Notes under the pieces: model-generated | Told to the model about the DNA's origin: nothing | Seen by the model: the letters and a program-made list of their open reading frames with translations, nothing else | Databases searched by the model: none | DNA from: a virus | Length of the DNA: 64,000 nucleotides | Reading direction: 5' to 3' (one strand) | Virus record (IMG/VR): IMGVR_UViG_3300025881_000006 | Span: 79,324-143,323 of that record | Translations under genes and position numbers: made by a program | In this document: piece by piece, positions 3,959-54,281 of the stretch | How positions within the stretch are numbered: position 1 is the first letter of the stretch | Layout of the letters: each line of letters begins with the position of its first letter

Positions 3959-4090
3959 TACTGTAACAGTAGTTCCGCCAATTCTGCCGTTACGTAAAAC
4001 GACCTGTCGCCAGCGGGAAGTTGGGTCTTCGTGACCTCTATATTTGTCGAACGGACTCTCCCGACCATAAGGTCGGGAGTTGTCTTTCTT
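3958..4090 (+). ncRNA. candidate structured small RNA of about 130 nt
   Basis: GC-richer than flanks; no RBS-led ORF; several hairpins and a long-range CCGTT/AACGG pair; bounded by TATG and a 9-bp terminator hairpin. Confidence 0.35.
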
Positions 4091-4134
4091 ATGCCCTTTT
4101 TTCTTTGATTTGGCTACTTTTCTTTTTATGCCGT
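4058..4134 (+). terminator. hairpin terminator followed by TATGCCCT and TATGCCGT
   Basis: CTCCCGACC-ATAA-GGTCGGGAG stem, T-rich tail, motif copies at 4090 and 4127. Confidence 0.7.
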
Positions 4135-4176
4135 CACCTCAGTTATGACAATATAGTAACAACAAGAGGATTGGCA

Positions 4177-6303
4177 ATGCAACATTTTATCAACGATACC
4201 CATGCATACGGACGTGATTTAAATATAGTAAGTAACTATCATCACGATACCGCTACGTATATAGCTAAGATGACAGGTCAGGATATGGATTACTGTTTAT
4301 CTTGGGTTAAACAACAGACTAGTCCTGGCGGTACTATGGCTGGACATGACCCTGAGCTATTATGTTTATCTAAAGAGACCCCTGGGAACCGTACACGCAT
4401 CCCTATGACGTTCTTACAGTACTTACATGAAGTAGAAGAACGTAAAGCTTTAACTTCACCCACAATGGCTGCCTATTTAAACCCTAACGAGCGTAAGTCT
4501 ATACTGGCTAAGTATATTGATGGTAACATCAAACTACGTTCTAAGGTTAAGAAGCAGATGTTCCAAGACAAAATGGATGGCAATAAGCAAGCTGCTGCTG
4601 ATGGACAGAAGATTCAATCCACCTTTAAGATAAAGAACAACTCACTATCAGGTGCCCACGCCTCTCCATATACGCCGTTGTTTAACAAATCTACTCACTC
4701 AACTCTGACATCTACTTGTCGTAGTGCTACTGGTTATGCTAATGCTAACAATGAACGGTTCTTATTTGGTAATCGACATTACTACGCTTTGAATGTAACA
4801 CTTGAAAATATCATCTCAATTGTTAATCAAGCAGACTATGCATTAATAGAACGGGCTATGGTAGAATATGAGTTAGTAGTACCAAGTATTACAGATGTTT
4901 GTGCAGCTATTAAACGCTCTACTGATTTATATTGGGCTAACTCTGTATGGACAGCGCAGATAGAAGCATTAGTGTCTAAGTTAACCGACATAGAACGTGC
5001 AGCCTATCTCTACACTGCCGATATGTATCACCTACGAGTATTAAACCCAGACATGGTGTATAACTTCCTAGATAAGTTGTCTACTAAGTTAGATACACCA
5101 CATCCAGACCCAGACCCTATTATTAAAGCATTAGATGCTGACTTGATAGCGTATATTGGTATCCTGTGCTCTAAAGAGTTAAATGGTAATACTATCTGGG
5201 ATGCCAAGGATAAGAATCCTGAGAACTATGCAATCATTGCTAATAATGCAGCGAACGTAATAGGTGTGTTAGATAGCTACCGTTTACTGATACGTGCCTT
5301 TTGGGTAACGAACTCACCACCTAGTGCTATTGCATTCTTTACAGATTCAATTCGCCGTGGGGTATTAGTGTCTGATACAGATTCTACTATCTTTACGGTG
5401 CAGGATTGGACTACGTGGTTCTTAAAGGGTATTAAGTTTGGTGAGAAGAATGATGCCCTGTGTGCAGCTATTGTCTATATGGCTTCACAGACAACCATTC
5501 ATTTACTTGCACAACTATCTGGTGCGATGGGTGTTATACCTGAACATATGTCTTTACTATCAATGAAGAATGAGTTTATGTTCCCGACTCTATTGTTAAC
5601 CTCACGTGCTAAGCATTATGCGTCGTATATCTCAGCCCAAGAAGGGAACGTATTTCCTAAGATGGATACTGAGATTAAAGGGGTGGCTTTAAAATCATCT
5701 AAAGCACCACAGCACGTTATTGATAAGTTACACAAGTTCATCATGGAACCTATGGATTTAGTATTAGCCAGTAAGAAGGTATCTGTTAAGAAGATGTTAA
5801 CAGAAGTAGCTGAACTAGAACGTGAGATTGAAAACTCTATCTCAACTGGTAAGGTTGATTACTTGACTACGTCTAATATTAAAGAACGTGAGTCTTACGC
5901 TAATCCTAAGAGTTCTAACTTTATCTACTACGACATGTGGGAAATGGTATTTGCACCGAAGTACGGCCCTGCCCCATTACCACCTTATCGTGCTGTAAAG
6001 GTATCTATGCGTTCAACTAGCGGTACTACACTTCGTAAGTGGATTGATAGTATCGAAGATAAAGAAATGGCAGAACGTTTAAAGACTTGGGTATCTGAAA
6101 ACAATCGCTTAGGTGGTATGCAGCAAATTCTAGTACCTATAGAAGTAGCTGTTACGTCTGGGATACCTAAAGAAATAACGATGAATGCGGATACTCGTAA
6201 GGTAGTGTATTCAACCGTAGAGCCATTCTATTTGATACTTGAATCGTTTGGCGTGTATATGCGTGATAAAAATATCACTAAGTTAGTTAGCGACTTTCAT
6301 TAG
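4177..6303 (+). CDS. B-family DNA polymerase, catalytic half (phiKZ gp50-like)
   Basis: Motif B KIKNNSLSG, motif C VSDTDS, KGV motif; ATG 4177 after GAGGA; no exonuclease or motif A in this ORF. Confidence 0.88.
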   Translation: MQHFINDTHAYGRDLNIVSNYHHDTATYIAKMTGQDMDYCLSWVKQQTSPGGTMAGHDPELLCLSKETPGNRTRIPMTFLQYLHEVEERKALTSPTMAAYLNPNERKSILAKYIDGNIKLRSKVKKQMFQDKMDGNKQAAADGQKIQSTFKIKNNSLSGAHASPYTPLFNKSTHSTLTSTCRSATGYANANNERFLFGNRHYYALNVTLENIISIVNQADYALIERAMVEYELVVPSITDVCAAIKRSTDLYWANSVWTAQIEALVSKLTDIERAAYLYTADMYHLRVLNPDMVYNFLDKLSTKLDTPHPDPDPIIKALDADLIAYIGILCSKELNGNTIWDAKDKNPENYAIIANNAANVIGVLDSYRLLIRAFWVTNSPPSAIAFFTDSIRRGVLVSDTDSTIFTVQDWTTWFLKGIKFGEKNDALCAAIVYMASQTTIHLLAQLSGAMGVIPEHMSLLSMKNEFMFPTLLLTSRAKHYASYISAQEGNVFPKMDTEIKGVALKSSKAPQHVIDKLHKFIMEPMDLVLASKKVSVKKMLTEVAELEREIENSISTGKVDYLTTSNIKERESYANPKSSNFIYYDMWEMVFAPKYGPAPLPPYRAVKVSMRSTSGTTLRKWIDSIEDKEMAERLKTWVSENNRLGGMQQILVPIEVAVTSGIPKEITMNADTRKVVYSTVEPFYLILESFGVYMRDKNITKLVSDFH

Positions 6304-6310
6304 GAGTATT

Positions 6311-6640
6311 ATGGCACAAAGTGCATTAATGGAGTTACCACCTTGGTATAGTCATCCAACTTTCAAGAATGGTAACTCCAAACTAATCAAAGGCATGATA
6401 GTAACGCCTATTGAGCCCATCCTTACAGAGTCCCCTAACGAATATGACCCACAAGTCTACGCTTACCCCGGTGAGCGTTTAAAGGTGGTACGTAATAACA
6501 AGATAGGGGATTACCCAATTGAGGTACAGCACAGTCATATGCGTGACCAAACCTTCTTTGTTAAGGCTGAGGAAATAACTATCTCTAGAGGAGTAAAAGA
6601 CATCTTTTACCCCATTGACGGCATAAGAAAAAAGCAGTAG
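6311..6640 (+). CDS. hypothetical protein, possibly SH3-like
   Basis: AGGAG SD; 109 aa with short beta strands. Confidence 0.7.
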   Translation: MAQSALMELPPWYSHPTFKNGNSKLIKGMIVTPIEPILTESPNEYDPQVYAYPGERLKVVRNNKIGDYPIEVQHSHMRDQTFFVKAEEITISRGVKDIFYPIDGIRKKQ

Positions 6641-6664
6641 GGTTATCCTACTGCTTTATGCCGT
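6618..6664. terminator. bidirectional terminator flanked by TATGCCGT on both strands
   Basis: AAAGCAGTAGG-GTTAT-CCTACTGCTTT between convergent genes; ACGGCATA at 6618 and TATGCCGT at 6657. Confidence 0.85.
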
Positions 6665-7755
6665 TATTCAATTATTAAAGATAGTTCTTCTAACATAGTG
6701 TCAAGATGTAATTGTAACATTGCATCTGGTGCGTTCTTAGTTAGCTTATCTGTTTTGATACGTCTTAACTGTCGTTTTAATTGCTTAGCCCAACGTCTAT
6801 CTTCACCTTGTTGATTAATAAGGTAGAAGTGAGATAAGAATAATACATACGGTAACCACATCGCAAGGATGGCCCAATAAATCTGTCTGGTTTCAGTAAG
6901 ACTAGTAAAGGGTAGGATATCGCGTAATGTATTATCTATTGTCAAAGGGATATTATCCAACACGTCCTCAGTAGATGCAGCTGAGTCGTAGAGGTACTCC
7001 ATGACATCAGGTACTTCTTTATCAAAAGACCCGGTATGTTTAGCCAGTGCTAATGGAGTGCGTTCTATAACCTTAGAGGGAGTAATGTCGTTATTGATAT
7101 CCCGATAGCGATTAAACATGGCTATCTCTAACTGCCTATCAATCATATTCCCCAACACATAACGGTATATGAACTGTTGTGTAGTCTGACGTCTGTCGAT
7201 AGGTTTACTGTTCTGCAAGTTAGCCCAATGGGTATATTGAATAGTCAGTAAGGGAATATCAATCATTATCACTGCATAGCCAAACGCATCTGTTTGTTCT
7301 ACACCGTAAGGTACGTTGAAATTTAAATCGCTGCTAGGATGATATAGGATACGTACTGCACTTATACTATCCCAGTTAAGCAATTCGTCCTGTGCGTTGA
7401 ACTCTGGACGATTAAGTGTACCTGCAATAACAATCTCCTTAACGTCTCCGCCGTAGAAATTACCAGAGGTAAGCTCACCGGATTGAATGTCTGTGGAGAT
7501 ACGTAAACCTCGTGCTATCTCTTCCGCTACATCTTCTACTAAGTCATAATGACGAAGTGCAGTGGTTGCAGGGGCAGGTGGTATACTCTCTAGTAGTTTT
7601 ACCAAGAGGTGATTACTGCGCAAACGCTTAGTTGATGTACGGACATATTCTGACATCTTAAGTAAGTTAGCATTCAAACCCTTCTGGGCTTGAAATAGTC
7701 CGGGGAATACCCGAGTGTTTCTATTAGCCTTTAAAGGTGAGAAGAACGATTGCAT
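6664..7755 (-). CDS. conserved phiKZ-like protein (gp52-like position, probable virion protein)
   Basis: Likely start MQSFFSPLK at 7755; minus-strand gene divergent from chimallin as in relatives. Confidence 0.6.
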   Translation of the reverse strand: MQSFFSPLKANRNTRVFPGLFQAQKGLNANLLKMSEYVRTSTKRLRSNHLLVKLLESIPPAPATTALRHYDLVEDVAEEIARGLRISTDIQSGELTSGNFYGGDVKEIVIAGTLNRPEFNAQDELLNWDSISAVRILYHPSSDLNFNVPYGVEQTDAFGYAVIMIDIPLLTIQYTHWANLQNSKPIDRRQTTQQFIYRYVLGNMIDRQLEIAMFNRYRDINNDITPSKVIERTPLALAKHTGSFDKEVPDVMEYLYDSAASTEDVLDNIPLTIDNTLRDILPFTSLTETRQIYWAILAMWLPYVLFLSHFYLINQQGEDRRWAKQLKRQLRRIKTDKLTKNAPDAMLQLHLDTMLEELSLIIE

Positions 7756-7907
7756 ATAGGTGCCCTTAGTCTTAACAGATGTGGTGTGTAAAAAAAGAAT
7801 GCTCATGATACATAGTATAGAGGATGCCTGTGTATCCACACGGTGAGCGAGAGCTCATCATGCACAGTCCCCTATGGTGTCGTTTGTGTTATTGAAACTG
7901 TTTTGAC

Positions 7908-7918
7908 ACCTACATCAT
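7908..7918 (+). promoter_or_regulatory. probable early (virion RNAP) promoter ACCTACATCAT
   Basis: 11-mer repeated upstream of chimallin and nvRNAP genes; resembles phiKZ early TATATTAC. Confidence 0.7.
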
Positions 7919-9872: not shown

Positions 9873-9897
9873 TTAGTACTGACGTAAAGTCATTTGA

Positions 9898-9929
9898 GAG
9901 GGGGTAACTCCCCTCTTTTTTTGTGCCGT
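9898..9929 (+). terminator. terminator with TGTGCCGT
   Basis: GAGGGGG-TAAC-TCCCCTC, T-run, motif variant at 9922. Confidence 0.8.
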
Positions 9930-15674: not shown

Positions 15675-15740
15675 CAGACTAGAGGCCCAGCAATTGCGGG
15701 TACTCTAGTCTGCGTAACTAATAAACAGTGCTTATGCCGT
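15675..15740 (+). terminator. long hairpin followed by TATGCCGT
   Basis: CAGACTAGAG...CTCTAGTCTG stem; motif at 15733. Confidence 0.7.
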
Positions 15741-15848
15741 CATCAATTTAACTAACATACTTAATATAGGTAACCATGATATTAACTAACTTACCCGGTA
15801 TCTTTCCCTTGATAGTCTAGTCTCGAATCTTATTGCACATAAGTACAG

Positions 15849-15859
15849 ACCTACATTAT
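15849..15859 (+). promoter_or_regulatory. probable early promoter ACCTACATTAT
   Basis: Match to the repeated motif. Confidence 0.65.
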
Positions 15860-15904
15860 CATTGCGTTAAGTATACCCTTACGCTAACAATAATGAGGTG
15901 CAAC

Positions 15905-16381
15905 ATGCAATACATCAACAAAGTCGATGCTATTACTTCCGACGAGAAAGTCAACGCCTTACTAGGCGACTTTCTAACTAAACAAACTAATAAACATAAA
16001 CCTCAGCTGGATATCGCTGGGTTTAATAGTCAACTACTGGCATCCAGTAAGAAACAAGAAGTTGTTGTTATCTGCAAAGACCAGTATGTGGCACAAGACC
16101 TTTACAAAACTTTCAAAGGAGTAAAGGGTGTGTTTACTACTAATGAACCGCTGTGTTTAACTGATGCATTGGGAGACTTGAATAAAGTCTTAGGTTGTAA
16201 CGGCCAGTACACTTTCCGTGCTATACGTTACAACTCTGATGTAGATAACCAGTCAGTGCTTGATGAAGCATTAGAAGATGTTGCCCTTAGAGCAAACAGT
16301 TCTAATGTACAAGTCATAACCAGTGACTTCTTGAAAACTTTATCTACTGAGGATAAAGAGTTTCTATTTGGTACATTCTAA
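15905..16381 (+). CDS. hypothetical protein
   Basis: GAGGTG SD before ATG 15905. Confidence 0.7.
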   Translation: MQYINKVDAITSDEKVNALLGDFLTKQTNKHKPQLDIAGFNSQLLASSKKQEVVVICKDQYVAQDLYKTFKGVKGVFTTNEPLCLTDALGDLNKVLGCNGQYTFRAIRYNSDVDNQSVLDEALEDVALRANSSNVQVITSDFLKTLSTEDKEFLFGTF

Positions 16382-16384
16382 AGT

Positions 16385-16417
16385 AGAGGGGCCTAGCGGT
16401 CCCTCTCTTTATGCCGT
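16385..16417 (+). terminator. terminator with TATGCCGT
   Basis: AGAGGG...CCCTCT stem; motif at 16410. Confidence 0.8.
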
Positions 16418-21404: not shown

Positions 21405-21437
21405 GGTAGGTCCGTATGGACCTACCTTTTATGACAT
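21405..21437 (+). terminator. terminator with TATGAC variant
   Basis: GGTAGGTCC-GTAT-GGACCTACC plus TTTTATGAC. Confidence 0.8.
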
Positions 21438-21452
21438 TCGACGTCAATACAC

Positions 21453-21463
21453 ACCTACATTAT
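21453..21463 (+). promoter_or_regulatory. probable early promoter ACCTACATTAT
   Basis: Match to the repeated motif; upstream of an nvRNAP subunit. Confidence 0.7.
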
Positions 21464-21499: not shown

Positions 21500-23050
21500 A
21501 TGAAACTAATACCCTCCCAATTCAATAACAAAGCTGTGACCGCCGTAAAGGTTGAACATGGCTCTCAGAATATAGAATGGTCAATTGGTCTATATGACCG
21601 TGCGACACTTAAACGCAAGGAGAATCTGTTTGACAATGCAAACCTTTATCTCTCTACATTAGATAAAGATACACACGCTAGAATCTGGAACGTGTATAAA
21701 GATATCTTTGATTCATTGGAAACGGTAGATAATACCGAAGTATTGCAGCGTATGGTAACTGAATCAGTAAGTGACCTATATGCAATACTAGATGTAGACA
21801 ACTTACGTTACTGGTCAAGTATGCATGGTCAGTACACCTATCCACCTAATCTTGCTGACGACTATGGTCCTAAACATACTAAGGAATTAACCTACCTTAG
21901 AAAAGACTATACTGGTTTACTATTCTTATCTACTGCACTGAGATTCATGGTGCCTATATGGGGAGAGTTTATTAAGCGTTACAAGGGTATAACGGGTACT
22001 GTATACAAAGAATACCTAGGTGCGATGATATTGGGACAATCAGAACTATTTACTTCACCTGAAGTAGAACGGTTACACGAGTACATTGTAGCTACAATTG
22101 GTTCTGGTAAGATTACACCTACAGCTATTCATGGTGGATTAGGCAGTGCCGACCAACCTGATTGGTTACTATCGCTTACTCTAATTCGTAGATTGGCAAT
22201 AGCAGAAAGCTTTGATGCAGAACCTTCTATTATCTCTAGTATCTATAACTTCCTAACCAGTAACATTGAAAATATGGATAAGAAGTTTGGACAAGGTAAT
22301 AAAGTGTTGGATAAGCATCCGCCAAATGGTGGTGGTGATATTGAGGATAACTCTTCAGTGGCTGAAAACTACCGTGTTAATCAAATGGTATCTGATGCAC
22401 CTGCTATCATTAACAGTGTATATGTAGAAGATGTAAAACGTTTAGCATGGTTAATAGAGCCTGACCTGCCAGAGTCATTATTGAATGCTTGTGTGAATAA
22501 GCTAATCAAAGACTCGTCATTAGAGATAGAACCCTTTAGGATAAACCTAGTGGGGGTAATAGTAAGAGAACATATATCAATACGTTCCTTACATTCTCTA
22601 GATTACGTGACACTACTTCGGTTAATCGGATTAACACAAGCCATCTTGTACTTTCATGAGTACGTAGACTTGGCACAGCTTATTACTGCACGTGGGAAGG
22701 ACCCAGACCTTTCAGTAATAAGAAGTAACATGATGGGCTCGGAATCCCGCTCAAGGCTCTCTAAAGAGCATACAGAGGCTCTGAATCTATTGTATCCATA
22801 CTACAGGCAAATTGGTCGTAGTACTGAGCGTAATAAGAACGATAACGTAGGTATTCAGTTTATCGAATCTTTTAATCGCGATACGTTAACGAGAGAGTGG
22901 TATTATCAATCTCCTGTTCAGATACTTGAACGAGGTGTAGGTAACGGCAAGCCATTCTTCATTCCAACTAACCTTAAGAATATCTTAGCTGGCTTAATCT
23001 TAGATAAGTTAGGCAGTAAAGAACCCGAAGAAACCGTTCAAACGGTATAA
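21500..23050 (+). CDS. nvRNAP sigma-like promoter-specificity subunit (phiKZ gp68-like)
   Basis: 516 aa helical protein; YLRKDY..L..LS..LR.MVPIWGEFI; position before PicA and nvRNAP beta genes. Confidence 0.78.
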   Translation: MKLIPSQFNNKAVTAVKVEHGSQNIEWSIGLYDRATLKRKENLFDNANLYLSTLDKDTHARIWNVYKDIFDSLETVDNTEVLQRMVTESVSDLYAILDVDNLRYWSSMHGQYTYPPNLADDYGPKHTKELTYLRKDYTGLLFLSTALRFMVPIWGEFIKRYKGITGTVYKEYLGAMILGQSELFTSPEVERLHEYIVATIGSGKITPTAIHGGLGSADQPDWLLSLTLIRRLAIAESFDAEPSIISSIYNFLTSNIENMDKKFGQGNKVLDKHPPNGGGDIEDNSSVAENYRVNQMVSDAPAIINSVYVEDVKRLAWLIEPDLPESLLNACVNKLIKDSSLEIEPFRINLVGVIVREHISIRSLHSLDYVTLLRLIGLTQAILYFHEYVDLAQLITARGKDPDLSVIRSNMMGSESRSRLSKEHTEALNLLYPYYRQIGRSTERNKNDNVGIQFIESFNRDTLTREWYYQSPVQILERGVGNGKPFFIPTNLKNILAGLILDKLGSKEPEETVQTV

Positions 23051-25782: not shown

Positions 25783-25829
25783 ACGGCATAGAAGAGTAGG
25801 TAGCCCCTACTCTTCTTTTTTTGTGCCTT
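25783..25829. terminator. bidirectional terminator with motif on both strands
   Basis: GAAGAGTAGG/CCTACTCTTC between convergent genes; ACGGCATA at 25783 and TGTGCCTT at 25822. Confidence 0.85.
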
Positions 25830-32865: not shown

Positions 32866-32897
32866 GAGTAGGGGGAAACCCTTACTCTTTATACGTC
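32866..32897 (+). terminator. terminator with TATACGTC variant
   Basis: GAGTAGGGG-GAAA-CCCTTACTC stem. Confidence 0.75.
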
Positions 32898-34937: not shown

Positions 34938-35351
34938 ATGTCTAAGTCAATAGGGTTTCTATACAGGCCACAACGCGGTACGTTAATAAACGCGATGCGT
35001 GAGATGAGATGGTTTCTTAATAAGGAAGAGTTATGTACTTACCTTAGAGAGTTATATAGTCACCTACCGCATAACTTCGATATCAGCCCTATTGGTTTAA
35101 AAGTAACTAAGTACGGTGAAGGTATTGATGAACGTACTGGATGGGATACGCATATTCTGACACTAGCAAACGATTATGGGGTACTTGGATATGTAGACCG
35201 AAGTATAGATAATCTACTTACACGTCCAGAGTTTAATCAACGGTTAAAAGACCCTGAATGTAACAATCGTTTAGAGAACCTATCTAGTGGGATAAATGCT
35301 ACAGTACAAAAACTAGTAGATGCATCTCATGTAGATTTGTATTCTAAATAA
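34938..35351 (+). CDS. hypothetical phage protein
   Basis: AAGGAG SD; YRPQRG.L..AM...DERTGWDTH pattern. Confidence 0.7.
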   Translation: MSKSIGFLYRPQRGTLINAMREMRWFLNKEELCTYLRELYSHLPHNFDISPIGLKVTKYGEGIDERTGWDTHILTLANDYGVLGYVDRSIDNLLTRPEFNQRLKDPECNNRLENLSSGINATVQKLVDASHVDLYSK

Positions 35352-35395
35352 CGGCATAAGAGAGTAGGGTTGCCCCTACTCTTCTTTTTTTGTCT
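35351..35395. terminator. bidirectional terminator
   Basis: AGAGTAGGG/CCCTACTCT between convergent genes; ACGGCATA at 35351 and a T-run on the plus side. Confidence 0.85.
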
Positions 35396-42228: not shown

Positions 42229-42426
42229 ATGTTATTAGTTGAGGCAGTAAGTCTAGGGATAAAGGAAAAACAATGTGATAGTTGTAAGCAGATTAAACCA
42301 TTGTCTTCTTTTGAAATAACCTACAGTCACCAGTTACGTGGTAAGCTACACGGTCACTGTTATACGTGTCGCATATTGACACTTGTTAACAACGTAGATG
42401 CTATAGTAAAACAGAAGAGGTCTTAG
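42229..42426 (+). CDS. small zinc-finger protein
   Basis: CDSC..IKPLSSF...CYTC. Confidence 0.55.
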   Translation: MLLVEAVSLGIKEKQCDSCKQIKPLSSFEITYSHQLRGKLHGHCYTCRILTLVNNVDAIVKQKRS

Positions 42427-42447
42427 GACTTCTTCTTACTATGCCGT
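42413..42447 (+). terminator. hairpin plus TATGCCGT, no U-tract
   Basis: AGAAGAGGTC/GGACTTCTTCT; motif at 42440. Confidence 0.7.
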
Positions 42448-46699: not shown

Positions 46700-46733
46700 T
46701 GGGAAGGTGTAAAAGCCTTCCCACTATGACCGT
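46700..46733 (+). terminator. hairpin plus TATGACCGT variant
   Basis: TGGGAAGG/CCTTCCCA stem, no U-tract. Confidence 0.7.
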
Positions 46734-47483: not shown

Positions 47484-47517
47484 CAGAGAAGCTTAACGGC
47501 TTCTCTGCTTATGCCGT
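47484..47517 (+). terminator. hairpin plus TATGCCGT, no U-tract
   Basis: CAGAGAAGC/GCTTCTCTG; motif at 47510. Confidence 0.8.
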
Positions 47518-48286: not shown

Positions 48287-48288
48287 AT

Positions 48289-48321
48289 AGGTAGGACTAC
48301 GGTCCTACCTGCTTATGCCGT
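48289..48321 (+). terminator. hairpin plus TATGCCGT, no U-tract
   Basis: AGGTAGGAC-TACG-GTCCTACCT; motif at 48314. Confidence 0.8.
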
Positions 48322-49036: not shown

Positions 49037-49122
49037 GCGGCATAAGTTACCTACAGTTTGCACTGTAGGCACCTAGAAACATAACACCTCATACAGTTGT
49101 TTAGGCTGTATGGGGTGTTTAT
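49037..49122. terminator. two hairpins between convergent genes; minus-strand TATGCCGC
   Basis: CCTACAG/CTGTAGG and AACACCTCATACAG/CTGTATGGGGTGTT; GCGGCATA at 49037. Confidence 0.7.
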
Positions 49123-49132
49123 GTATTCTTTT

Positions 49133-51019
49133 TTATTTGTGTTGTTCGTTAAATGCTTCTAACAGAGTAGGCATGTCAGGCATGTCTAGAACAGTGGTTG
49201 CAATGTGTACTGCATTAGTTCTAGGTGCTGTCATGTTCAGTGCTGTTGTGCGATAAAGCTTTTCAGGTTTACCTTTAATACGTGATACTTCCCTCCATGT
49301 AGTTTCTTTACTACAGTTAAGTGCTATCTCACCGTGCGGGTATGCCCCTGCCACATCTAAGTCAGCTACGTTGATATTAAGACTACTTTCAACATCAGGT
49401 AGTTCTTCTAGTATCTTTAAGCCACGTTGTGCAGTTAAATGACTAGGTAGTGTAACAATCCAATCCGTCATGTCTACAACGTACTTATCTAAATCATCTT
49501 CCATAGAATCCGAAGTGCTGGCCATGGCCTTACCTTCTTGCTCTAGTACGACAAAGTGTAGGTCATCGCAAAGACGTCTAGGTGTAGATGTAAAACGACT
49601 TAGGTCTGAGTGTCCTAATAACATCCGCATGGTCTTGATGTCATTATTCTTCTCTTCTAACAGTTCAACACCAATACAGTCAAAGATGTTATATACCACA
49701 TATTCAACACGATGGTCAGTCTGCATGACTTGGTGCCACTTCAAACCTTGATATTGACTAGCAGCATCAAACTTCAACTTACCTAAATTCAATTCACGAC
49801 CTAATATAGCATCCAATGAATAACTAGGCTGTTGCGCTTCAGTTACTCGTAGTCTCTTATACAAACACATTGCATCTATAAAGTAGAAACTAGCTGGTGC
49901 AAATACAGTGTGCCATAAATCAGCAGGGTGTTGTGATGTCACTTTACCCGTTGCAGTGGTTTTCTGTAGTTGTCCTTGTTTAAAGTTAAAGCTTCTATAA
50001 GCAGGTGGTATACTTGGATCGCAAAAGATGTCTTCAGGATTAATGTGGTGTCTTGTACAAGACTCTAACATTTTATTAACATCAAACGTAATGTTCCAAA
50101 TAACAACAAAGTCAGGTTGCCATTCATGCGCTTTAGCAAGTATAGCTCTAGTTGCATCACCGTCGTGTTTAACCGTTACTATTTCCAGTTTAATATTACG
50201 GTCTTTCTTATACTTAGCCAACTGCTCATCAAAGCACTGTTCTATCTTTGATTTCATATCCGGCATAATAGAAGCATACTGCTCAGTGATAACAACAAAG
50301 ACTTTATCTTTCATGGTAAGCGAACCTGTAATGATTGGCGTCGCGTGCATTTCTTGAGTCTTCTTAATACTACGTATCTTTTCCTGACAGTCATCGATAT
50401 CACTAGCCAACGAACGCTTCTCACTAGTACGAGTCACTTTACCACTTTCTAATATGGACTGACACTCACTAATGCGTTTACGAAGTCTGATGATGTTATC
50501 TTCTAACTTATACCAACGGTCTTGGTCCTGTTTACTTAGATTCTCAAATACCGTGTTTGTTTCGTAATCCAGTACTGCCACATCAGATGGATAGGATGCA
50601 TCGTTGAACTTTTCGAATGATTTAATATATCGATTCTTAATCAACACACTGGACGAAACGTCTGTACCGTATAGGAAAGGTGACCTTGCCAAGAAAGACA
50701 GTCTAGGGTTACTTACAGGCTTCCCTAAGGCGCGTGCTACTACAACACCCATCTTAACTTGAGTGGATGAGAACTTTTGCAACTTAGAGAGGTCTTCCCA
50801 TTCTTTTTTATCAGCATGGTTACGATGTTTCTCACGGGTTACAAAGAAGTCCTTCTTATAGTTCTGGATTATCCTTAAATTAGATTCCCTACTCCCATCT
50901 TTTGAATGGATGTGTTCTTTTACTACAACGATATCATTCTCTCGTTGTTTATCAGTGAAGTAACATGCATGTATACATTCTACTCCAGCGATATCCTCTT
51001 TAGGTATTTTCGTTGACAT
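49133..51019 (-). CDS. B-family DNA polymerase, exonuclease plus motif A half (phiKZ gp82-like)
   Basis: ExoI LDYET, ExoII WNITFD, ExoIII YNIFD, motif A DLDVAGAYP. Confidence 0.87.
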   Translation of the reverse strand: MSTKIPKEDIAGVECIHACYFTDKQRENDIVVVKEHIHSKDGSRESNLRIIQNYKKDFFVTREKHRNHADKKEWEDLSKLQKFSSTQVKMGVVVARALGKPVSNPRLSFLARSPFLYGTDVSSSVLIKNRYIKSFEKFNDASYPSDVAVLDYETNTVFENLSKQDQDRWYKLEDNIIRLRKRISECQSILESGKVTRTSEKRSLASDIDDCQEKIRSIKKTQEMHATPIITGSLTMKDKVFVVITEQYASIMPDMKSKIEQCFDEQLAKYKKDRNIKLEIVTVKHDGDATRAILAKAHEWQPDFVVIWNITFDVNKMLESCTRHHINPEDIFCDPSIPPAYRSFNFKQGQLQKTTATGKVTSQHPADLWHTVFAPASFYFIDAMCLYKRLRVTEAQQPSYSLDAILGRELNLGKLKFDAASQYQGLKWHQVMQTDHRVEYVVYNIFDCIGVELLEEKNNDIKTMRMLLGHSDLSRFTSTPRRLCDDLHFVVLEQEGKAMASTSDSMEDDLDKYVVDMTDWIVTLPSHLTAQRGLKILEELPDVESSLNINVADLDVAGAYPHGEIALNCSKETTWREVSRIKGKPEKLYRTTALNMTAPRTNAVHIATTVLDMPDMPTLLEAFNEQHK

Positions 51020-52873: not shown

Positions 52874-54238
52874 ATGGAACATCCACTACTACAAATCACA
52901 TTAGAAGAGCACGAGGTCAGTGCTCTAGAATTAGCGTTTGAATCATTTGACGTTGAATCTAAACTAGTAATCGATTTAGGCGCACAGGTTCAAGACTGTG
53001 GTGCCTCTAGAGAACTTGCTTTAGCGTTAGAAGATATCAACCCCGGTGCTATTGATAAACGTTATCCTGTTATCTCATTTACACAGGTACCTTCACAGAC
53101 CAATTATGAAGTGGCGATTGAAGGTGTGATGGCTACCAGTGCTAAGATACTTAAGCAGATAGGTGAAGCTATACTTAAGTTTATCAAAAACGTATTTAAA
53201 GCCGTAGCGGATTTATTCAAGGATTTATTCAAGACCTCAGTAGATGTTGAAAAGGTGGAAGAATCGAATCAAGAGTCTGCTAAAGACTTTACAGACTTAG
53301 TACAGGGCGCTGACATTACAGGTAGTCCTATTGTCGAAAAGGTCTTTAAAGGCGAGAAGGATGTACAGCAGGTTCGTGTGCGTGCCGAAAGGGTGAATGG
53401 TCGTATTAAATTCTACAACCCCGCTTCTGGCGATATCAAGTTTAATGAATCCGGTGACCGCAAGGTAGATAAAACGACTGATGAGTTATTACAAGAAGGT
53501 GTAGACCACATTGTTGATACTTTAAACGGTTTGATTATCTATCTACACAACAACCCGTTAGATCATAACGGTCTGGAAGAAACTGGTAAAGGGATGGGTG
53601 AGTTGGGTGAAGAGGTGAATCGTATCTTCTTTCATCTAACGTTATTGCAGGAGAAGGTTGCTGAAGATCGTAATAATAACACATTAACCATGTCTATTAC
53701 AAAGATTAAAGAGCTTAACAAACCTTTTAGTGTAGACTTCTTAATGCCTCTTTTTCAACCTGCTGACTTTACACCTACATCAGGTACCATACGTGAAGAC
53801 ATGACTCGTCTATTACAAGTGTATCGCGACTTAGCTGCTCAGAAGTTTAAATCTAGTGGAGACTTATCTAAGGATAAAGAACTGCAAGGTTTGATGCGCG
53901 GGAGAGTTAATATCTTCGGTAGACTGATGCAAGGTATGGAAGCACAGGTTAAAGTGATGTCTAAGTTAGATAACGATATTAAGAAACTGAAGTTTCCTCC
54001 TGCACTTAATCCTAAAGTTGACTTTGCACCATCATTGGTAAGTGAATATCATGCAAGTGCTAGGGAGCTTTATAATCACCTTAATGAGATGTCTTCCATT
54101 CTATTATCAGCTGCTAATATTATCGGAATGATACTTACATCGCATAAAGCTATTGTTATGGCACGTGCTAAGTACGAATCAACTCGTGTAGATGCATACG
54201 CTGCAATGTCTGACTATCAGTTTTCAAAGGACGTATAA
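52874..54238 (+). CDS. head protein with multiple A/S-X-E processing sites
   Basis: ALE, AFE, ALE, AIE followed by an amphipathic helix. Confidence 0.7.
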   Translation: MEHPLLQITLEEHEVSALELAFESFDVESKLVIDLGAQVQDCGASRELALALEDINPGAIDKRYPVISFTQVPSQTNYEVAIEGVMATSAKILKQIGEAILKFIKNVFKAVADLFKDLFKTSVDVEKVEESNQESAKDFTDLVQGADITGSPIVEKVFKGEKDVQQVRVRAERVNGRIKFYNPASGDIKFNESGDRKVDKTTDELLQEGVDHIVDTLNGLIIYLHNNPLDHNGLEETGKGMGELGEEVNRIFFHLTLLQEKVAEDRNNNTLTMSITKIKELNKPFSVDFLMPLFQPADFTPTSGTIREDMTRLLQVYRDLAAQKFKSSGDLSKDKELQGLMRGRVNIFGRLMQGMEAQVKVMSKLDNDIKKLKFPPALNPKVDFAPSLVSEYHASARELYNHLNEMSSILLSAANIIGMILTSHKAIVMARAKYESTRVDAYAAMSDYQFSKDV

Positions 54239-54281
54239 ACGCATAATAAGAGACGGGCAAACGCCCGTCTCTCTATGCCGT
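54238..54281. terminator. bidirectional terminator with motif on both strands
   Basis: AGAGACGGG/CCCGTCTCT; TATGCCGT at 54274 and AACGCATA at 54238. Confidence 0.85.

Follow-up and report, generated by a model that had tools for sequence, protein, structure and literature searches.

The closest described counterparts of the element analyzed here are the transcription terminators of phiKZ-type jumbo phages. In phiKZ, ONT-cappable-seq revealed 61 termination regions in which a stem-loop precedes the shared tail TTATKYYGT (Putzeys et al. 2024, microLife, PMC10914365); the published consensus has a C-rich 5′ arm and a G-rich 3′ arm, and the authors classed these sites as ordinary intrinsic terminators. 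In 201phi2-1, eight terminators were active in uninfected Pseudomonas, so a phage RNA polymerase (RNAP) is not required for those eight; terminators whose stem is extended by a second motif were stronger (Poppeliers et al. 2024, PMC11512511). Intrinsic terminators release the RNA at a spacing of 7-9 nt from the stem (PMC4496710). The word TATG also serves in initiation. The pocket in which the non-virion RNAP (nvRNAP) of phiKZ binds its promoter word, TATG, is part of the core β-like subunit gp123, not of the sigma-like one, and is incomplete in the transcribing complex (PMC12809450). The nvRNAP lacks the β′ rudder, which stabilizes elongation complexes (PMC7618050). The phiKZ late promoters consist of TATG with its G as +1, and TATG alone is insufficient for initiation.

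The window, a stretch of 64,000 nucleotides, spans positions 79324 to 143323 in a contig of 194,866 bp from an uncultured marine phage. It encodes chimallin (the nuclear shell protein), split RNAP subunits and a gp68 homologue, which together indicate that the phage is phiKZ-like, forms a nucleus and has virion and non-virion RNAPs of its own; a gp123 homologue, encoded outside the window, agrees with this relationship to phiKZ. No close relative was found in phage records, where the best chimallin match shared 31% identity, or in IMG/VR with one protein scan. Genes were called with a simple caller of our own, which over-extended a few gene starts. The DNA polymerase ORF (4021-6303), for example, likely begins at ATG 4177 rather than at TTG 4021, as a ribosome-binding site lies upstream and the profile match begins at residue 53; with this start, 4058-4134 is intergenic. 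DNA of this phage is present in marine metagenomes, and a search of the listed sequencing runs returned no RNA run containing it. The contigs recovered from further marine samples differed too little to show selection on the motif. The sole differences in a 1576-base contig from a second marine sample are the four loop bases 54259-54262, where AAAC reads GTTT, its reverse complement, with the stem and both tails unchanged; this looks like a hairpin-mediated micro-inversion. At the contig end, near-identical 24-31-nt hairpin-forming repeats lie within minus-strand genes (genome positions 189270, 191629 and 194005, and 192246 and 194623), and are probably repeated tail-fibre modules.

Motif copies, hairpins and gene junctions

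The octamer TATGCCGT occurs in 42 copies genome-wide, compared to 4.8 expected under an order-3 Markov model, and is the most over-represented 8-mer. Twelve copies lie in the window, whereas shuffled sequences yielded 1.82 +/- 1.46 (maximum 5), in line with the one or two chance matches estimated by an earlier reading of the letters (the sequence-only reading). All 11 exact copies listed in that reading are at the positions and on the strands it gave, and its eight variants are all present; the twelfth copy, absent from its list, is probably a chance occurrence (Table 1).

Genome-wide, 33 of the 42 exact copies stand directly behind a hairpin whose energy is -12 kcal/mol or lower, which is the phiKZ-type arrangement of a stem-loop with a TTATKYYGT-like tail. 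Nine of the 12 window copies are hairpin-linked, so the earlier statement that nearly all copies lie just 3′ of a hairpin stands in the main but fails at 4127 and 15733, which have no adjacent hairpin. The strand of every hairpin-linked copy (33/33) is that of the gene ending upstream. The motif or a close variant is present at 15 of 17 convergent junctions, in eight of these on both strands, compared to one of 16 divergent junctions (p=2e-6); it is thereby found at gene ends on the transcribed strand and is used bidirectionally between convergent genes. Each strand had been said to carry its own copy at convergent ends: this is exact at 6618-6664, but at 25783-25829 the plus strand has TGTGCCTT behind a 7-T run, and the copy at 54238 reads TATGCGTT. 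Five hairpins described as having no U-tract (42413, 46700, 47484, 48289 and 54249(+)) indeed have none, and not one of them was called a terminator by a hairpin-plus-5T scan. The motif can be said to replace the U-tract at these five sites, but not at the minus-strand copy 6618, which follows a 6-T run and thus combines both.

Compared to the phiKZ terminator motif, the element has the same architecture, tail consensus (of which TTATGCCGT is an instance), gene-end position and bidirectional use between convergent genes, and belongs to the same phage and polymerase family; however, its tail is near-invariant and poorer in U. The arms are also reversed, with a purine 5′ arm and a pyrimidine 3′ arm. 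Stem polarity is genome-specific: the 5′ arm is C-rich in phiKZ, 201phi2-1 and RTH11, and purine-rich here, in RAY and in Eowyn. As loop and arm sequences vary freely across the family, arm polarity was taken as non-defining. Motif A of 201phi2-1 (with motif B) is similar as well, comprising a hairpin and a TAT-G-NY-G tail, with an upstream CATA in part of the copies. The element is therefore not new, having been published in 2024 for phiKZ and 201phi2-1, and is here extended to a distant marine lineage. An Rfam search gave no match to it, and no published work tying TATGCC to phage terminators was found in the literature. Just outside the window, an intergenic region of ~350 nt (genome 144204-144533; window coordinates 64881-65210) holds three strong hairpins, of which two bear the motif and the third a T-run, and could contain a small RNA.

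Table 1. Motif copies, hairpins, promoter words and polymerase genes, in window coordinates unless marked as genome coordinates
Feature	Position	Strand	Remarks
Exact TATGCCGT, twelfth copy	1421	+	inside gene, without hairpin
Hairpin with variant TATGCCCT in T-rich sequence	4058..4097	+	upstream of DNA polymerase gene
Exact motif without adjacent hairpin	4127..4134	+	50 nt before likely DNA polymerase start
TATGCCGT tail of gene 6664-7839	6618..6625	-	predicted Y-G boundary 14 nt past last G-C pair
Shared bidirectional hairpin, ~ -15.7 kcal/mol	6631..6657	.	between convergent genes 6311-6640(+) and 6664-7839(-)
TATGCCGT tail of plus-strand unit	6657..6664	+	unit of DNA polymerase and small gene
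Predicted RNA 3′ end of plus-strand unit	6662	+	9 nt past last G-C pair; register from 201phi2-1
Putative early (virion RNAP) promoter element ACCTACAT(C/T)A	7908..7917	+	also 9950, 15849, 21453, 26224
Hairpin, 7-T run, then TGTGCCGT (TATG broken)	9896..9929	+	end of chimallin gene; first terminator after early-type promoter
Exact motif, out of register	15733..15740	+	~20 nt 3′ of hairpin
Hairpin with TATGCCGT	16385..16417	+	after gene 15833-16381
Hairpin with variant TATGACAT	21405..21437	+	directly 5′ of early-type promoter at 21453
gp68 homologue (sigma-like nvRNAP subunit)	21500..23050	+	by homology
Bidirectional terminator	25783..25829	.	minus TATGCCGT without U-run; plus strand, early unit
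Other RNAP subunit genes in window	10002, 26279, 28332, 36309		
Hairpin with variant TATACGTC	32866..32897	+	after helicase gene containing intein
Bidirectional terminator	35351..35393	.	minus TATGCCGT, unit with virion RNAP subunit gene; plus T-run only
U-less hairpin with TATGCCGT	42413..42447	+	
U-less hairpin with variant TATGACCG	46700..46732	+	
U-less hairpin with TATGCCGT	47484..47517	+	
U-less hairpin with TATGCCGT	48288..48321	+	
Hairpin with variant TATGCCGC	49037..49071	-	after DNA polymerase gene 49133-51019 (minus)
Bidirectional terminator	54238..54281	.	plus TATGCCGT, minus TATGCGTT
gp123 homologue	genome 163714-165300		outside window
Wild-type tail sequence after hairpin, CTATGCCGT			

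Register of the RNA 3′ end and U content of the tail

We placed on the 201phi2-1 genome the eight termination sites whose positions are given in the text of PMC11512511. Seven of them fall at the TATNNY-G boundary and one a base earlier, where ONT ends are accurate only to ~2 nt (a figure stated for start sites) and are possibly trimmed; two of the eight read TTATGCC-G, with the break before the G. From the register of this relative, we infer the 3′ ends of the present phage. The distance from the last G-C pair to the Y-G boundary peaks at 7-9 nt in eight phages (the present one, phiKZ, 201phi2-1, RAY, Eowyn, RTH11, Xoo-sp14 and Goslar); for the TATGCGT variant it peaks at 9 nt, which would agree with an unchanged spacing. 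The 7-9 nt correspond to the release spacing of intrinsic terminators, and the tail would therefore fill the RNA-DNA hybrid at release. Directly past the boundary stands GT in 37 of 39 copies, the G itself being part of the search pattern.

The canonical Rho-independent terminator thus resembles the element in its strong, GC-rich hairpin and in a release point 7-9 nt further on, but differs from it in the U-tract. Compared to the usual five or more U within 8 nt, all 35 hairpin-linked TATGCC copies have two to four T in the last 8 nt, so that many copies fail the U-tract rule of the class to which the phiKZ terminators were assigned. The mean T content of these 8 nt is 3.2, versus 4.5 in phiKZ. 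The mean hybrid energy is -9.3 kcal/mol, versus -4.0 for tails at gene ends in PA5oct, a phage transcribed by the host polymerase, which makes the hybrid here ~5 kcal/mol more stable. With only 2-4 U in the hybrid, something besides a weak rU-dA hybrid would have to stall the enzyme.

A partial likeness to the E. coli consensus pause (G-10 Y-1 G+1) was also found: Y-1 G+1 is present at seven of the eight mapped 201phi2-1 ends and, by register, would be present here. The G-10 occurs in 34 of 42 copies of 201phi2-1 but in one of 38 here, which rules out the full pause in this genome. It is present in phiKZ, 201phi2-1 and RTH11, and absent in RAY, Eowyn and Xoo-sp14 as in this genome, where it was lost because stem polarity is reversed.

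The sequence-only reading had proposed a termination signal, and its proposal is backed by the orientation, the junction context, the match to the phiKZ terminator motif and the 201phi2-1 RNA ends inside the motif. Its analogy to T7 class II terminators (ATCTGTT) went no further than a short fixed sequence in one orientation used by a phage polymerase: class II terminators are hairpin-free, end the RNA 6-8 nt past the motif and serve a single-subunit enzyme, whereas here most copies are linked to a hairpin at a fixed distance and the end lies inside the motif. Taken together, our analysis has the motif marking RNA 3′ ends; it is not a terminator of T7 class II, and in most cases it is not a promoter either. 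The elements are very probably the phage's own factor-independent terminators of the phiKZ type, consisting of a strong hairpin and a short tail, YY-TATG-CC-GT, in the place of the U-tract, with the RNA end inside the tail. In the mechanism we propose, the RNA would end after TATGCC and before the G, 7-9 nt from the stem base; the tail would stall the polymerase at the Y-1/G+1 step, giving the hairpin time to release an RNA whose hybrid contains no more than 2-4 U. The tail would be used mainly by the non-virion (middle/late) polymerase, and units from early promoters would keep U-runs.

Probable early promoters and the distribution of the tail

The intergenic word ACCTA(C/T)AT(C/T)A occurs at ~15 sites genome-wide, all on the plus strand and mostly 45-60 nt before genes, among them those of chimallin, gp68 and nvRNAP subunits. 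It resembles TA(C/T)ATTAC of phiKZ, RAY and Eowyn. From its position and its likeness to the phiKZ early motif, it is probably an early (virion RNAP, vRNAP) promoter. In phiKZ, the strand and spacing pattern of TATATTAC, which we take to be the early promoter word of that phage, is consistent with this role.

Analysis of the first terminators after early-type promoters revealed a T-run in six of 13 in this genome, versus four of 53 others, and the motif in two of 13, versus 34 of 53. Across the plus strands of five genomes, stratified by genome and junction type, and with early promoters set by hand-made patterns chosen by eye, the motif is depleted after early promoters (OR 0.23, p=0.001; without this genome, OR 0.30, p=0.03), and T-runs are enriched (OR 3.3, p=0.0006; without this genome, 2.9, p=0.008). 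Within single genomes, the split is not significant in RAY, and its motif part is not significant in 201phi2-1. In the hairpins at 25783-25829 and 35351-35393, the early strand carries a T-run and the opposite strand TATGCCGT, and two early-unit tails of this genome read TGTGCC, in which TATG is broken. This distribution suggests that the motif tail belongs to the non-virion polymerase, and that units from early promoters keep U-runs.

A search for hairpins with a TATG[ACT]YG tail returned 36 in this genome, compared to 0.5 expected. Such hairpins are 19- to 81-fold over expectation in this genome, phiKZ, 201phi2-1, RAY, Proteus phage 10, Eowyn, RTH11, Xoo-sp14, RP12, FLC9 and Goslar, and ~18-fold in RSL2, rates that are inflated for several phages, as three genomes were analyzed whole and several others by regions chosen partly where the motif was seen. 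A relaxed pattern detected a weak version in EL, OBP and pVa-21. T-runs take the place of the tail in SPN3US, AgentSmith and PCH45, and also in AR9 and phiR1-37, which lack the shell. In a tree of three nvRNAP subunits from 20 phages, tail-bearing and tail-less lineages are interleaved with a backbone support of 21-36; with such support, the tail can be neither assigned to one clade nor dated.

Alternative readings of the tail and their consequences

How the tail acts within a terminator can be explained in more than one way. It may be that no sequence-specific reading takes place, a view to which we give an appreciable but minority weight: phage RNAPs would need little U behind a strong hairpin, and pairing of UAUG with an upstream CAUA would lengthen the stem, with one tail serving both strands. 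The rudder-less nvRNAP (PMC7618050) is consistent with this, as is the second motif that Poppeliers et al. read in 201phi2-1 as a stem extension against antitermination and found in stronger terminators (PMC11512511). About half of the copies have an upstream CATA, and pairing then reaches 0.95, versus 0.46 in shuffled sequences. However, CATA stands upstream of 10 of 14 copies at convergent junctions compared to five of 20 at tandem junctions (p=0.013); it tracks convergent junctions because one convergent hairpin bears a tail on each strand, and is thus mostly the tail of the opposite strand. Moreover, CATA-free copies keep the same letters with little excess pairing, none of it significant in six of seven phages and small here (0.66 vs 0.48), and a stem extension leaves the conserved GT beyond the RNA end unexplained. 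The narrower candidate, in which the tail is a stem extension only, was rejected, as CATA-free copies give it no support.

Alternatively, and only tentatively, the tail might act as a promoter-mimic pause, in which the gp123 pocket binds the non-template TATG during elongation and anchors the enzyme, CC is added by scrunching, and the hairpin then releases the stalled complex. The pocket belongs to a core subunit, and the word it binds is exactly TATG (PMC12809450). The RNA end lies 2 nt beyond the G of this word, as the addition of two bases would give if TATG were caught with its G at the active site; the depletion of the motif in vRNAP units and the broken TGTGCC tails there point the same way. 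At eight pocket positions selected post hoc (144, 151, 158, 185, 331, 334, 406 and 466), this phage and all 11 further strong-tail phages keep the residue or change it conservatively. Of six phages with a weak tail or none, four deviate at these positions, although they also rank with the most divergent phages (15-23% identity). In AR9, the nvRNAP reads another promoter, and no such tails are present. By contrast, PCH45 keeps the pocket and has almost no tails, and conservation of the pocket would be expected from promoter use alone and is confounded with overall divergence. The incompleteness of the pocket in the transcribing complex also argues against this pause, as does the finding that host RNAP stops at the 201phi2-1 copies, though most of those eight elements keep three U's after the stem. 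A broader scheme built on the pocket, which we hold to be speculative, would give nucleus-forming phages two termination codes: a hairpin with a U-run for vRNAP, and a hairpin with a TATG caught by the promoter-reading β-lobe pocket for nvRNAP. The weight that remains within the terminator reading falls to a generic Y-G pause or some other contact.

Outside the terminator reading, the ends might be processed, the tail being recognized in the RNA by a phage protein or nuclease (for 3′-end protection, cleavage or export from the phage nucleus) and true termination lying further on. ONT-cappable-seq reports steady-state ends, at most of the eight 201phi2-1 sites no more than 2-3 nt separate the extended stem from the RNA end, as trimming by an exonuclease leaves it, and the reporter drop in host cells could stem from processing. 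Nevertheless, we consider processing improbable: the distance from stem to boundary has the length of the hybrid across eight phages whether the tail pairs or not, conserved bases lie past the RNA end, and the 201phi2-1 elements act without any phage protein.

A late promoter, for sense re-initiation or antisense transcription into the convergent gene, is very improbable for the hairpin-linked copies. TATG on the non-template strand and the G at +1 of phiKZ late promoters fit such a role, but the motif is nearly absent from divergent junctions, where promoters must be, and the published ends that map to it are 3′ rather than 5′ ends. Moreover, a separate early-type promoter lies ~25-110 nt beyond several tandem copies, and TATG by itself does not suffice for initiation. 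The alternative raised by the sequence-only reading is possible for a few hairpin-free copies that lie upstream of genes, such as 4127, which is a candidate true TATG promoter or back-up stop. Candidates of the same kind are 15733 and a tandem pair of exact motifs 9 nt apart in intergenic sequence (genome 162304/162313), which has no in-register hairpin.

Under the preferred reading, that of phiKZ-type terminators, U-poor tails escape ordinary terminator predictors and should not stop a bacterial polymerase well. What the present analysis adds to the published element, and what we infer here, is the register of the 3′ end, the hybrid with 2-4 U, and a split between early and late terminators that points to the late polymerase. 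About 30 tails of nearly the same sequence, the poorest with just two U's, provide a clean test set for terminator function. No in vitro study of termination by jumbo-phage polymerases was found in the literature; the 2026 structure, with TATG bound by a core subunit, makes termination by these RNAPs directly testable. If the two termination codes were true, one four-base word would be both the start and the stop signal of a multisubunit RNAP, with the hairpin deciding between them and no U-tract.
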